Shown here in pieces: positions 20,837 to 29,123 of a stretch of 64,000 bases of DNA. The notes under the pieces were generated by a model, which was not told the origin of the DNA, ran no database searches, and saw only the letters and a list, made by a program, of their open reading frames with translations. Source of the DNA: Mobula hypostoma (lineage: Eukaryota); NCBI RefSeq assembly GCF_963921235.1, contig NC_086108.1, positions 26,786,001 to 26,850,000 of the forward strand. The letters are read 5' to 3'. Numbering within the stretch: position 1 is the stretch's first letter; the number at the start of each line of letters is the position of its first letter. The translations under genes were made by a program, and so were the position numbers.

Positions 20837-22205
20837 TATAAATGCAGACTGATAAAAAGCCTAAGAGGCAAATATTCTGCAATGGTAAGAATGAACTTTT
20901 ACTATTACTGTGCATTTTCAAGATTTCCCAAGGCACAACACAGGCACTGAAAATTGACCAAATCGGTGGCTTTAGTGGACTGTCCTGAAATGGTAGGCTA
21001 TGCACATCTAAATCACACCTTCCCCTTGTGATTGATAGTGTGAGGGAGAAATTCAATGTGATGGACATTTGCAAACATTCTTTTCTGGGGATGATGCAAG
21101 AAATTGAAAAGAAATTAAATAATAAAGGGAAAAAGAGGGTTTCTTCTGAGGTTTATCTCAGTCCCCTAGTTATAATTCTCAATGTAGTTGAATTTGAAGA
21201 AGTTAGGGCACATCCATGGTTCTGCTGTCTCCATCTGGCTTATCAGGTGAGTGAGGGAAGTTTCCTCCTGAACCCTTTAAATGTATGTCATCTCATTCAT
21301 GTAAAAGACTGACTGTAGGAAGTGAAGTGGCCACTAACTAGTCAATGGTTCTTTGCCCTTAAATAGGTTAACCCTGCTTTCAGATCAATGTTTGGAATAT
21401 AAAGGATGGTGGACCTTCTCAAACTGAATATGCTTGACCAAATATCAAATATTATCTGGATCATTCAAGTGTAAGCATAGCAGCATTCAGAACATCATGG
21501 GTGTCTCCATTAAAGGGCACTATATCTTCAAAATCAAATTCAACCTGAAAAAAATCAAATTGGCTGGGTTTAAAGCAAATTGGCCTGATATTGGTTTGGA
21601 ACAGTGCCATACTGTACTGAGTGATTGCTTACCTCCAGGCTCTTAGTTCTCATCTCAATGGTGCATGTAGAAACTCAGTCAACACCCGGCTCGTGCTTAA
21701 TTAACAAATAACAAGTAAACTCCAATTAGAAATACCCAAAGGCAATGAGTGTTAATGGCACTCTCTCTGCATGTTGTTTCTTATTCCTCTTTCTAATTAA
21801 ATAGAGTCTGCATGTTCAACACAATAATGCAAAATATAACAGATAGAAGCTCAAAAGAGCTTGGAAAGGCCGAGCTATTTGCTTTTCCCTTGTTCTGGAG
21901 GTTAAGTTCAGCTGTTGTGTTATTATCATTATTTACTGATGGAACAGCTTAAATGAAGCAAACTGAAATATCTCAAATATCTGGAACAAAGATTCACCAC
22001 CAATGAAAGTATTAACTGATTTTTTTCTCAAAACAGTAACTTTAAATACAATTTAGCACGGTGTCAAGCTGATCTAATTTTTATCTCCCAAATGGAGAAG
22101 GTATGGGTTTCTATTGTGCTTTTCAGTAGATTGGTCATGTCGACAAGATTTCTTTCAACAGAGGTTACTAAATAAAACCTGGTTTATCTTTTCAACCATG
22201 AATAT

Positions 22206-23081
22206 TTTGCAGACGACGCAACTGTCATTGGCCTTATCCGAGACGCTGATGAGTCTGCATATAGACGGGTGGTGGAACAGCTGGCCCTCTGGTGTGGGGG
22301 TCAGAACAATCTGGAGCTAAATACACTCAAGACTGTGGAGATGACAGTGGACTTCAGGAGGAGCCCCCCAATACTCCCCCCACTCACTATACTCAACAGT
22401 ATTGTGTCTACTGTGGAGACCTTCAAGTTTCTGGGTGTCACAATCTCCCAGGACCTGAAGTGGACACCCAACACGGACACTCTTATCAAAAAGACTCTGC
22501 AGAGGTTGCATTTCCTACGTCAACTCAGGAAGTACAACCTGCCTCAGGAGCTGCTGATTCAATTCTATTCAGGAATAATTCAGTCTGTTCTCTGTTCGTC
22601 CATCACTGTCTGGTTTGGATCAGCTACGAAACAAGACAAGAATAGACTCCAAAGAACCGTCAGGGCTGCGGAAAGAATTACTGGTGTGAAGCTGCCCTCG
22701 ATCCAGGACTTATATGCATCTAGAGTCAGGAAGCGAGCAAGCAGTATCATTGTAGACCCATCACATCCTGGACATCACCTGTTCCAACTCCTTCCTTCTG
22801 GTAGGCGCTCTAGATCACTGTATGCCAGGATAAATAGGTACAAGAACAGTTTCTTTCCGTATGCCATCAGTCTTATGAACACTTGAATTTTAGTCTATTA
22901 TAAACCAAGTCCACCTGTACATACACAAGTATACCTCACTGTATATAGTTCATAATTATTTGCACTATTGTTTTGTTTGCTTTTTGATTCTGTACAGCGA
23001 GAGCTCAGGGAAACCGGCATCAAATTCCCTGTATGTGTCCACAAACTTGGCGATAATAAGGGATTCTGATTCTGATTCTGA
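22206..23081 (+). mobile_element. Rex1/Babar LINE, 5'-truncated, relatively young
   Basis: FADD at about 22206; 205-aa open frame 22269-22886 (KTVEMTVDFRR, FKFLG, HPGHHLFQLLPSGRR, NSFFP); (ATTCTG)n tail. Confidence 0.9.
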
Positions 23082-24649: not shown

Positions 24650-26579
24650 CCTGTACTATCCATTCCAAAACCAAAAGCTGTGGATAAACTAGGAGGTACA
24701 TCATCTGCTGAAGGCTAGATCTGTGGCATTCAGGTCTGGCGACCCAGGCCTGAACCAGAGAACCAGGTATGGTTTGCGGAGGGCTATTTCAAGGGCAAAG
24801 AGACAATTTCGAACGAGGTTGGAGGCGACATCAGATACACGGCAACTCTGGCAGGGATGCAAAACATTACTTCCTACAAAGCAAAACCCAATGATGCCTC
24901 AGTGATGCCTCACTACCAGATGAACTCAACATTTTCTATGCACGCTTTGAAATGGAGAACACAACTACAGCTGTGAAGATCCCTGCTGTACCTGATGACC
25001 CTGTGATCTCCGCCTCAGAGGCCAATGTTAGGCTGTCTTTAAAGGGAGTGAACCCTCGCAAGGCAGTAGGTCCCGATGGAGTACCTGGTAAGTCTCAGAA
25101 AACCTGTACCAACCAACTAGCAGGAGGATTCAAGGACATTTTCAGCCTCTCACTGCTACAGGTGGAAGTTCCTACTTGCTTCAAAAAAACAACAATTATA
25201 CCAGTGCCTAAGAAGAATAATGTGGGCTGCCTTAATGACTGTCGCCCAGTAGCACTCAATTCAACTGTGATGAAATGCCTTGAGAGGTTGGTTATGACTA
25301 GGTGGAACTCCTGCCTCAGCAAGAACCTGGACCTATTGCAATTTGCCTATCTCAATGGCTGTCCACACAGCTTTAGACCAAGTGGACAACACAAGCACCT
25401 ATGTCAGGATGCTGCTCATTGACTATAGTTCAGCATTTAATACCATCATTCCCACAATCTTGATTGAGAAGTTGCAGAACCTGGACCTCTGTACCTCCCT
25501 CTGAAATTGGATCCTTGACTTCCTCACCGGAGACCACAATCTGTGCGGATTGGTGATAACATATCCTCCTCTCTGATGACCAACACTGGCACATCTCGGG
25601 CGTGTGCTTAGCTCACTGCTCTACTCTCTATATACACATGACTGTGTGGCTAGGCACAGCTCAAATACCATCTATAAATTTGCTGATGATACAACCATTG
25701 TTGGTAGAAGCTCAGATGTTGATGAGACGATGTACAGAAGTGAGATATGCCAACTAGTGGAATGGTGTCACAGCAACAACCTGGCATTCAACATCAGTAA
25801 GACGAAAAAGTTGATTGTGGACTTCAGGAAGGGTAAGACGAAGGAACACAAACTAGTCCTCATAGGGATCAGAAGTGGAGAGTGTGAGCAACTTCAAGTT
25901 CCTGGGTGTCAAGATCTCTGAGGATCTAACCTGGTCCCAACATGTCGATGTAGTTATAAAGAAGGCAAAGCAGCAACTATACTTCATTAGGAGTTTGAAG
26001 AGATTTGGCATGTCAATAAATACACTCAGAAACATCTATAGATGTACCGTGGAGAGCATTCTGACAGGCTGCATCACCGTCTAGTGGGGGAGCTACTGCA
26101 CAGGACTGAAAGAAGCTGCAGAGGGTTGTAAATCTAGTCAGCTCCATCTTAGGTACTAGCCTACAAAGTAACCCAGGACATCTTCAGGGAGTGGTGTCTC
26201 AGAAAGGTAGTATGCATTATTAAAGATGTGCAGCACCCAGGGCATGCTCTTTTCTCACTGTTAACATCAGGTAGGAGGTACAGAAGTCTGAAGGTACACA
26301 CTCAGCGATTCAGGAACAGCTTCTTCCCCTTTGCCATCCGATTCCTAAATCTTTGGACAGTACCTCACTTTGTTTGTAATACACAGTATTTCTGTTTTTG
26401 CACATTTTTTAAATCTATTCAACATATGTAATTGATTTACTTGTTTATTTATTATTATTATTATTATTTGTTTATTTTTCTCTGCTAGATTATGTATTGC
26501 ATTGAACTGCTGCTGCTAAGTTAACAAATTTCATGTCACATGCCAGTGATAATAAACCTGATTCTGATTCTGATTCTGA
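24650..26579 (+). mobile_element. Rex1/Babar LINE RT region (decayed)
   Basis: KAVGPDG, IIPVPKK..LNDCRPVAL, LQFAY, KFADDTTIVG, FKFLG; (ATTCTG)n tail. Confidence 0.92.
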
Positions 26580-27600: not shown

Positions 27601-27847
27601 GGTACCACTTAGCATCCGTTATCTTGTCTATTTGCTCCAGTGCTCTGAATTGCCACACAAATGCTGACTGGATTGTATTTTTATACACTACCTTTATAAT
27701 TCCTGACTCAAGCATTAGTCTTTTTCTCAAATTTATTTTCCTGTGATATATTCTCTATCAATGATTTTTCTGCCAGGGTCAACTCTGCTGGGAGTAATTC
27801 ATAAGGTTTGTCCATCATCATCGATGAAGACCTCGACACCATTAGCA

Positions 27848-27983
27848 CCGTTTACGAGGCTGAGTTGCTAGCTCGACGTTCAGCCCAGCATGGATGGAAA
27901 GCATGCAAGGGAGCCAGCCAGATTCGAATTCGGCACCTCTCATCCCGAAGTCCAGCACTGATGCCACTAAGCCACCAGCTGGC
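27848..27983 (-). mobile_element. tRNA-derived SINE (relative of 4857-5090)
   Basis: Minus strand GCCAGCTGGTGGCTTAGTGG (A box), TTCGAATC (B box), shared TTTCCATCC..GCAACTC..CCTCGTAAA body. Confidence 0.75.
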
Positions 27984-28312
27984 TTATGGTGGTGTCGAGA
28001 CTAGCGCGTGATTTGGATTTAAGTGAGGGAGGGATGTGCAGCATCAGCCTCACTCTCTCTTCCCAATTCCCATCTGGATCCAATGGCAAGACAAGAGTTG
28101 AGACGGCTGGAGATGGGACCAGGCGCAGTGGATGACCAGGACGTATTCTGTGTCTTGTCCTTCTCTACACGTTCCGCGACGCTTGCAGAGACCACCTTCT
28201 TGACCGTTGGACCTTCCATTGGTCTCGTTCGCTCAATTTGCCGGAGTCTGTCTTCACATGCTGGGATAGACATCCCTCTATCTCACTGAGGGTTTGAGAC
28301 CCGTCGGCTACC

Positions 28313-28495
28313 CTCACCTGGTTTAGCCGGCTTGTCGAAGCCATTGCCTGGAGTGTGGCCGCTGTCGCATGCAATCAGCTACAGGGAGCCACAGGTGAGA
28401 GCTGAGTGCCAGGTGGGGACCAATGGTGGACTAACCGCCTTGAAAAGGACGTGACATGTTCCCCCACCAGAGGTGTTACCCCTCCCTGACACCCC
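28313..28495 (-). ncRNA. HDV-like self-cleaving ribozyme (nested double pseudoknot)
   Basis: Minus strand: P1 GGGGTGT/ACACTCC, P2 CTCACCTGT/ACCAGGTGAG, P3 GGC/GCC, L3 starting TCCCTG, AGGCAAT junction, P4 GGCTT-CGAC-AAGCC, J4/2 GGCTAA. Confidence 0.75.
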
Positions 28496-28705
28496 ATAGA
28501 CCCCAAATTCATAGAGGCCAATTCACCTACCAACCCACATGTCTTTGGGCTGTGGCGGTGAACCAGAGCAATGGAGGGAGAGCAAGCAAACTCCATATGC
28601 ATTTGCAGGAAGAATATGAAATTCTACATAGACAGCAGTCAAGTATAGGGTTAAAATCTGTTCACTGGAGCTACGAGTCAGCAGTACCAATGGCAGCAAC
28701 ATCAT
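28496..28705 (-). mobile_element. V-SINE-like remnant
   Basis: GGCCAATTCACCTACCAACC..GTCTTTG..AACCAGAGCA..CAAACTCC matches the reverse complement of other V-SINE copies. Confidence 0.6.
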
Positions 28706-29123
28706 GAGACATTGATGGGCTAAGTAGTCTCCTTCTGTCTTACAAAGAAAAGATTTATCTTGAAGAAATTTTTTTTGAGCCATCTGCACAATATCTATTT
28801 CACAGTGACCATCACTGAAGATTAGAGGCTATCCCTGGGTAACAAATGGGTTCTAATTTTACAGGTGTTCATATGCTGATTGTATGTGTTGTAAGACAGA
28901 AAATACACAAAAATCACCATATTGGAAGGCAGGGTGCTGTGTGAGATTGGATCGCTCTGGGCACCAAGCTGATTTGGAGAGGTCAAGAACAGCTTCTCTG
29001 GCAGTGGATTCGCTGCTGCTGGGCTTGGTTCCTAGTGCAAGGTTTGGAGAATTTAAATGGCAGGCCAGATAGACTGGGAGCTCCTCTCTCCATAACGCTA
29101 ACACAGTGAGACTGCCCCCGGCT

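Follow-up and report, generated by a model that had tools for sequence, protein, structure and literature searches.

A probable hepatitis delta virus-like ribozyme with an extra hairpin in L3 at the 5' end of an abundant short retroelement of Mobula hypostoma

This study concerns a repeat in a 64,000-nt stretch of the Mobula hypostoma genome (contig NC_086108.1, positions 26,786,001 to 26,850,000; the whole stretch is here referred to as the window). For positions 28313-28495 of its minus strand, an earlier note had proposed a ribozyme like that of hepatitis delta virus (HDV), with an unusual hairpin in loop L3. The repeat is one copy of an abundant short retroelement, here referred to as family A, and the comparison of its sequences indicates that the head of the source copies is probably an HDV-like ribozyme, i.e., a self-cleaving fold placed at the element's 5' end. 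The fold is conserved between copies and families, covaries, and begins at the element's terminus. A test that does not depend on the ribozyme descriptor is given by the first strand of P1, which coincides with the terminus that is defined by target-site duplications (TSDs).

Family A was delimited by searching the window's own 3.48-Gb assembly with 28000-28520 as the query; in the genome searches reported here, only the best candidates were scored out of thousands. For family A there were 3964 first-look candidates; of the 40 scored, one is the window copy itself and the other 39 show 92-94% identity. The copies are 95-97% identical among themselves over roughly 560-585 bp, and an 87-nt core is present in the genome as 217 exact copies. 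The element is ~570 bp long, non-coding, and encodes no reverse transcriptase (RT). In a 3'-anchored sample (last 88 nt, 30 loci), 18 loci are full length, including the query's own place, and the remaining 12 are truncated at scattered 5' positions, namely, element nt 25, 38, 49, 75, 123, 124, 146, 189, 207, 328, 438, and 441. The 3' ends, which are preceded by two hairpins, read ...ACGATGGACGAAC followed by CAA/CAAC repeats, and TSDs of 9-13 nt were found in 18 of 29 copies. The TSDs, the scattered 5' truncations, and the (CAA)n-like tail point to copying of the long interspersed nuclear element (LINE) type, and judged by these marks family A is a non-autonomous element moved by LINE-type retroposition.

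The TSDs also fix where the element starts. In the window copy, direct reading of the minus strand places the 5' TSD (TATGAATT) at 28506-28513, with one additional T at 28505 before the element, and the 3' TSD (also TATGAATT) at 27796-27803, right behind the tail (...GATGGACAAAC). This sets the start at 28504 and not at 28495, where G1 had been placed. In all 18 copies with a TSD of at least 9 nt, the boundary falls between -6 and +2 nt relative to the first G. In seven copies it is exactly at GGGGTGT or GGGGTAT, in five there are 1-6 extra bases, and the others lack one to three G or are ambiguous through a TSD ending in G. None of the 18 starts at the equivalent of G28495, which on the earlier note's own terms speaks against that start. 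All 29 other copies carry an additional GGGGTGTAT (or a close variant) upstream of this position, and the family A head reads GGGGTGT-AT-GGGGTGTCAGG..., starting 9 nt upstream of the proposed G1. The second GGGGTGT had been picked because the first unit reads GGGGTCT in the window (28504-28498). Both in the window copy and in a fetched copy with the majority core (L003), the second GGGGUGUC folds into a 10-bp stem with GGCACUC... that closes the long J1/2 hairpin. The strand at 28495-28489, taken for the P1 strand in the earlier note, is thus predicted to close J1/2 instead, and the first GGGGTGT can form the same P1, in which the first 7 nt of the element pair with the 7 nt directly behind P3'. 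Based on the TSD boundaries and on the folding of the second strand into the J1/2 hairpin, G1 is most likely 28504, with a J1/2 of 98 nt.

Two further families share this head. Family B was found through a 73%-identical relative of the family A element that was present by chance in a fetched locus, and family C through a loose-end consensus derived from contigs of other species. There were 3059 candidates for family B (scored copies 79-84% identical to the query; 12 copies aligned) and 7407 for family C (73-78% identity; 21 copies aligned). Family B copies are ~530-560 bp long, one full family C copy is ~490 bp, and both families have the first ~380 nt and the last ~25-30 nt in common with family A. 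Families B and C are older than A. Downstream of one family B copy there is no long open reading frame (ORF) but a family A insertion (L092:53-580), which lies no more than ~50 nt past the retrieved portion of that copy; A was therefore active after B.

Majority sequences were compared for 53 A, 11 B, and 21 C copies. P1 plus AU is identical at 9/9 positions in all pairs of majorities, and the identity between them exceeds 90% in basal J1/2 and drops to ~50% in apical J1/2. The core (nt 106-192) is identical at 77 of 87 positions in A vs B as well as in A vs C, and the body behind the ribozyme is 78% identical in A vs B. Within the core there are zero differences among the three families in P2 (16 nt), P3 (6 nt), P1' (7 nt), P1.1 (4 nt), and J4/2 (8 nt), and the five changes that fall at paired positions (126/144, 163/176, and 173) were all scored as keeping the pairing. 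The outer pair of the L3 hairpin (126/144) is A-U in family B and G-C in the other two families. The first pair of P4 (163/176) is G-C in A, C-G in B, and C-A in the family C majority, where it is a CpG site at which individual copies are split between G and A; the fourth pair of P4 (173), U-A in family A, is replaced by U.G in both other families. Other core changes affect L3 positions 4-5, where A has CC and both B and C have AA, three junction bases past P1.1, and two loop bases; no further ones occur. The J1/2 insert takes the same long hairpin fold in all three majorities, and at least one further G-C to A-U exchange can be read directly from the sequences of its inner stem.

In an alignment of 65 sequences, 94.5% of the cells of the full pseudoknotted structure are paired, vs 33-48% with slid partners. 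Eleven pairs are changed on both sides vs 4.7 in shuffles, and none of 500 shuffles reaches 11; in these pair counts, many cells of one pair may represent a single inherited event. The covariation is located in P4, the L3 hairpin, and the J1/2 stems, P1, P2, and P3 being invariant between the family majorities.

The conserved head follows the nested double-pseudoknot order P1, J1/2, P2, P3, L3, P3', P1', P1.1, P4, J4/2, P2'. It was compared with the RNArobo descriptor hdv-looseP4 (PMC4870747, supplementary Fig. S11), which was re-implemented in a strict and a relaxed form. The published descriptor has a purine-first P1, a J1/2 of ≤50 nt, a 6-bp P2, a 3-bp Watson-Crick P3, TYYHCGY as L3, a purine behind P1', a loose P4, and CNRA before P2'. 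The relaxed form allows a J1/2 of ≤120 nt, ≤30 nt past the L3 motif, a spacer of 0-1 nt from P2 to P3, and one of 0-2 nt past CNRA. The majorities of A, B, and C all have a 7-bp purine-first P1 (GGGGUGU/ACACCCC; 90.1% of the upstream strand cells paired), and the GG that follows P1' gives P1.1. L3 opens with UCCCCG in A and with UCCAAG in B and C, and the first 7 nt of the family A majority motif, UCCCCGU, fit TYYHCGY; the importance of the U/G pair in L3 is stated in PMC3386971. The catalytic C within CNRA is present, and GGCUAAAC, in which it lies, is identical in the A, B, and C majorities. Overall, the element shares with the descriptor class a 3-bp Watson-Crick P3, TYYHCGY (family A), a purine past P1', CNRA, and a P2 of at least 6 bp. 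It differs from it by a J1/2 of 98-100 nt vs the limit of 50, by 21 nt between the L3 motif and P3', by a single nucleotide that separates P2 from P3 and two nucleotides that separate CNRA from P2', and, in B and C, by an A at L3 position 5. The relaxed descriptor matches copies with the majority core (e.g., the fetched copies L002, L003, and L008) in both P1 registers; 33 of the 53 family A copies pass, of which 20 in both registers, 1 in the upstream register only, and 12 in the downstream register only.

The window copy itself is a single copy of the family A element that runs from 28504 to 27806 on the minus strand; in a blastn comparison of a full copy with the window, element positions 1-520 correspond to 28504-27984 and 518-559 to 27844-27806. 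Reading 28495-28313 directly and deriving the coordinates anew confirmed that all motifs listed in the earlier note are present where it had placed them on the minus strand: GGGGTGT (28495-28489) and ACACTCC (28356-28350), CTCACCTGT (28399-28391) and ACCAGGTGAG (28322-28313), and GGC/GCC flanking a 28-nt loop that starts with TCCCTG and contains GCTG-ATTGCATGCGA-CAGC, together with AGGCAAT, GGCTT-CGAC-AAGCC, and GGCTAA in that order. Mapping of the family structure onto this copy gives the following parts, all on the minus strand. The likely P1 5' strand, placed by TSDs, alignments, and a list of differences from the majority, is the upstream one at 28498-28504 (GGGGTCT here, GGGGTGT in the majority). 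The J1/2 insert (28404-28495) is a long hairpin in both minimum free energy (MFE) and centroid folds, its closing stem being built with the second GGGGUGUC. It is followed by the 5' strand of P2 (CUCACCUG, 8 pairs, 28392-28399; 97.5% of cells paired in the 65 sequences) and that of P3 (GGC, 28388-28390; 97.4% paired). The L3 core with the U...G signature and the CC for P1.1 occupies 28380-28387 (UCCCUGUA here, UCCCCGUA in the family A majority), and the extra hairpin behind it (GCUG, an 11-nt loop, and CAGC) occupies 28361-28379. According to mapping and pair counts, the 3' strand of P3 (GCC) lies at 28357-28359; that of P1 (ACACUCC here, ACACCCC in the majority), located by mapping and the difference list, lies at 28350-28356. 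The 3' strand of P1.1 with the junction (28343-28349) reads AGGCAAU here and GGGCAAC in the majority. P4 (GGCUU-CGAC-AAGCC, from folds and mapping) spans 28329-28342, J4/2 (GGCUAAAC, fitting CNRA of the descriptor) spans 28321-28328 with the C75-equivalent at 28326, and the 3' strand of P2 (CAGGUGAG, from mapping and pair counts) spans 28313-28320.

The window copy differs from the family A majority at 10 of 192 positions. The changes include G6C in the upstream P1 strand, a C to U change at the C24-equivalent, a G to A change at the G38-equivalent, and one C to U change in P1'. Since these key positions of the upstream P1 strand, L3, the G38-equivalent, and P1' are lost, the window copy should be dead, i.e., inactive as a ribozyme. 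The suggestion that this copy is impaired at the G38-equivalent is in line with the majority, which has G where the window copy has A in addition to its other core losses. Likewise, the prediction that a consensus would repair the decay was correct: the majority has ACACCCC and GGGCAAC where the window copy has ACACTCC and AGGCAAT. The junction GGGCAAC equals the string that the earlier note gives for genomic HDV. The 4-bp hairpin behind the L3 motif is supported by mapping and, as a predicted fold, by the sequence comparison.

Several results weigh against a ribozyme at the head of family A. In the window, neither the strict nor the relaxed descriptor gives a match, which concerns the window copy itself. 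No Rfam family reaches its gathering score in the whole window, no Rfam match was obtained at E≤10 in 28000-28800, and in five loci with A, B, and C copies the only matches at E≤10 were three chance ones to long non-coding RNAs (E 4-9). That standard models would miss the element had been foreseen, and the absence of relevant Rfam matches agrees with it. Neither MFE z-score reaches significance (L003: 0.10; window copy: -0.97). At 28 nt, of which 21 follow the motif and include the 4-bp hairpin, L3 is longer than the short 7-nt loop of the class. Moreover, the B and C majorities have an A where the descriptor demands C at L3 position 5, and they pass only under a looser L3 rule that matches 40 times in 5 Mb of random sequence. 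The upstream P1 strand is GGGGTAT (G6A) in 7 of 53 family A copies, uncompensated in P1', and the 12 copies among the 33 passing ones that fit in the downstream register only count on the same side. As the tested structure was derived from one of the 65 sequences, its excess over the slid controls is in part expected. Lastly, a fixed transcription start could likewise yield a constant 5' end. As to chance, the relaxed form finds 5 cores per 20 Mb of random sequence of window-like composition and 22 per 20 Mb at the GC-rich composition of the ribozyme region (the strict form finds 0 and 0). Taken by itself, this match rate is too high for genome-wide significance, but only ~0.03 matches are expected in the 128 kb that were read, and the chance rate thus counts in favour of the ribozyme.

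The main rival explanation, which is unlikely, holds that the conserved 5' 190 nt are a structured RNA domain that has lost self-cleavage or never had it, e.g., a binding site for the partner RT, an internal promoter region, or a translation element, with the constant 5' end resulting from the transcription start. What the covariation in P4, the L3 hairpin, and the J1/2 stems demonstrates is RNA structure rather than catalysis. Families B and C, which are older, have no C at L3 position 5, where the published descriptor asks for one, the 28-nt L3 lies outside the published descriptor, and the Rfam models score nothing. HDV-type folds can, moreover, have other roles: in R2, a pseudoknot that lies in the ribozyme region is bound by the element's protein (PMC6765202). 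However, strict identity in the three families is found in the parts by which the HDV active site is defined (P1; P3; U...G and CC in L3; GG in P1.1; CUAA in J4/2), P1 joins the very first 7 nt of the element to the 7 nt directly behind P3', and no tRNA, 5S, or 7SL head was found that could supply an RNA polymerase III (pol III) promoter. It is far less probable that the ribozyme works in the downstream register, with the second GGGGUGU (28495-28489) as P1 strand and a cut between element nt 9 and 10. Both strands are identical in the majority, so that either pairs with ACACCCC and the descriptor returns both, and 12 of the 33 passing copies fit only there; yet none of the 18 copies with a TSD of at least 9 nt starts at nt 10. 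Furthermore, nt 1-9 are identical in the majorities of the three families and were therefore inherited through RNA, and folding puts the second strand into the closing stem of J1/2, where pairing is kept through changes between A and C. A chance resemblance picked by eye in a GC-rich repeat is scarcely credible and was already disfavoured: the window copy fails the descriptor, loosened descriptors match random sequence, and the MFE z-scores are unremarkable, but the family majority repairs the window mismatches exactly as predicted, the core is conserved with compensatory changes across three families, and P1 coincides with the terminus.

If the head of family A is the HDV-like ribozyme that the comparison suggests, source copies would be transcribed inside longer host transcripts, and their first 192 nt would fold as an HDV-type double pseudoknot in which nt 1-7 and nt 149-155 form P1. 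The fold would include the 98-nt J1/2 hairpin, P2, P3, P1.1, P4, and J4/2 with the catalytic C, and the core would tolerate the 19-nt hairpin behind the L3 motif. The predicted ribozyme would cut 5' of G1 (window position 28504), so that each RNA would have the same first base, which would become the first base of new insertions; the resulting RNA would then be the template of a LINE enzyme, with the 3' hairpins and the tail as the features recognised. According to PMC3386971, the nucleotide past the loop-III G of the antigenomic HDV ribozyme is bulged out and is the least conserved. The insertion site of the extra hairpin may correspond to this loop-III nucleotide, and since the HDV counterpart is bulged out, a branch behind the L3 G would be structurally plausible. 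A more far-reaching proposal, offered tentatively and at somewhat less than even odds, is that the L3 hairpin and the doubled P1 are working parts of a distinct subclass of the HDV fold, in which a three-way junction replaces the L3 bulge. Such ribozymes would be active in vivo and, in several related species, would have set the 5' ends of thousands of non-coding retroelements through no fewer than three waves of amplification. The helix would have been selected as a folding aid or as a handle for a partner protein, and the subclass would have been missed by standard searches in vertebrates and elsewhere.

Family A sequence also turns up in public sequencing runs: sampled words of one family A copy were found in runs labelled as seven organisms (shares of 0.47-0.90). 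In contigs of runs labelled as three further organisms and of one run that is possibly of RNA, flanks of low agreement begin at L003:1506-1508, which is the same 5' boundary, and the AA variant of L3 is common in the contigs of these four runs. The contigs of the possible RNA run extend into unlike flanks at the boundary, which is equally compatible with DNA and with uncleaved RNA.

Ribozyme-headed retrotransposons and their non-autonomous derivatives are already known, e.g., R2 with its SIDEs (internally deleted LINEs) and L1Tc with NARTc. The HDV-like ribozymes of R2 and other non-LTR (long terminal repeat) elements have the same nested P1-P2-P3-P1'-P4-P2' order (PMC3774820, PMC6765202). As in R2-type ribozymes, the first base of a 7-bp P1 is the first base of the element and J1/2 carries a large insert; for R2 ribozymes, P1-P1' distances that range from 23 to over 700 nt are reported, as are duplicated P1 strands (PMC3774820), by which the 5' end is known to be extended. 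Alike as well is the role that has been proposed, the release of the element RNA out of a co-transcript, and the L3 core UCCCCGU resembles the conserved CCUCCUCGUGG quoted for R2 in PMC5035012. Unlike R2, the present element is dispersed with TSDs of 8-15 nt and not specific to ribosomal DNA, is non-coding with a length of 570 bp, and carries a 19-nt hairpin in L3. Closer in kind are the R2 SIDEs of Drosophila (PMC3414825) and NARTc with the L1Tc Pr77 (PMC3383444, PMC3185411), which are likewise short, lack an RT gene, and have a 5' HDV-like ribozyme and a 3' end that is presumably recognised by the enzyme of a partner. They have a known autonomous parent, whereas none was found for family A by five routes, and the present case differs from them in its large animal genome, thousands of copies, and three families. 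The twister T-variants on Perere-3 (PMC8501958) and the hammerhead SINE-like elements of Schistosoma (PMC6765202; SINE = short interspersed nuclear element) belong to other ribozyme classes and share the logic that a self-cleaving RNA defines the 5' end of the retroelement RNA.

New in the present case is the build, which combines a helix that branches off L3 with a P1 strand in two copies and a J1/2 of 98 nt. The setting, with three families that are short and very abundant in one large animal genome, is new as well. The usual means of detecting HDV-like ribozymes are descriptors or covariance models in which L3 is fixed at 7-8 nt. In the parts of the literature available, no description of an HDV-like ribozyme with a helix in L3 was found, nor one of a delta-type ribozyme at the front of a short, very abundant retroelement of a large animal genome, a paper on HDV-like ribozymes that also names sharks being concerned with R2. 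No printed version of the family A core was found either, in a search outside of which key works of the field lie, so that an earlier description is possible. If the proposed ribozyme is real, the conserved L3 helix would show that the active-site loop tolerates a branch, current surveys would undercount the HDV-like class, and a lineage of short, very abundant retroelements of a large animal genome would have a delta-type ribozyme as its head. The 217 identical natural cores and three diverged natural variants are available for direct biochemical comparison.

The origin of the element's head and of its enzyme was approached by further searches. ARAGORN found 0 tRNAs in seven loci and in 27780-28620 of the window, and Rfam gave no tRNA, 5S, or 7SL match at E≤10 in the five loci with A, B, and C copies. 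With no such head found, these tests do not make the element a classical pol III SINE. Five routes (ORF homology, 3'-hairpin pattern, tail pattern, 3'-anchored sample, and 5'-end pattern) yielded no autonomous LINE partner among the best-scored candidates, where a rare parent could be missed. The candidates that emerged were set aside: a longer protein matching the ORF behind the ribozyme (P0001) is a spurious ORF over a decayed family A copy, and a 550-aa open frame adjoining one copy is a CT-rich simple tract. Once the family flank was excluded, every match of the 3'-hairpin pattern was a reverse-strand copy of the hairpin, which is palindromic. Of the 139 matches of the tail pattern, the 100 that were listed all belong to a family A variant with 2 nt deleted; among the 10 matches of the 5'-end pattern, eight are mutated copies of A, B, or C, and the other two are ends that look unrelated.

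Some observations on the body and tail of the element were made alongside. The 3' hairpins of family A (e.g., L003:2030-2085) comprise an 11-bp perfect stem (CTCGACACCAT/ATGGTGTCGAG) and then a shorter second hairpin, and only the last ~25-30 nt of this 3' end are shared with families B and C. The variant with a 2-nt deletion, which lies ahead of ACGATGG, has 139 exact matches. Another family A copy (L047; G000:C5:125390500-125400000) lies within several kb of CT-rich sequence with stop-free frames of up to 922 codons. Behind the ribozyme, an ORF starts at the ATG in CCAATGG (e.g., L006:1789-2070; 28019-28282 in the window, where it is frameshifted). It is open to the 3' tail in the majorities of family A (~94 codons) and family B, and in the single family C copy the frame is also open, partly in another frame than in B. 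This ORF has no Pfam match above the cut-off (sub-threshold ones only), its sole homologue is the junk ORF over a decayed copy of the same family, and it may be a remnant of the first ORF of a parent or due to chance.

In the surroundings of the window copy, the earlier note had seen a junction with an unrelated SINE at 28495. Upstream of 28504 there is indeed another dispersed repeat, but the junction is not at 28495. The flank at 28505-28577 (minus strand) has many dispersed matches (79-93% over 42-83 nt, and one of 73% over ~130 nt) that extend up to the element boundary, and it is a conserved part of another, older repeat. In the loop of the first 3' hairpin, the window copy carries a foreign insertion of ~140 bp (27845-27983, minus strand), which resembles the head of a tRNA-related SINE (GCCAGCTGGTGGCTTAGTGG...GAATTCGAATC...) and in which ARAGORN reports no tRNA. 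Elsewhere in the window, the plus strand has RT-like open frames at 22176-22886 and 24895-26431 that end in ...NSFFP.AI..(L/M)N and are remnants of one or two LINE copies unrelated to the element described here.

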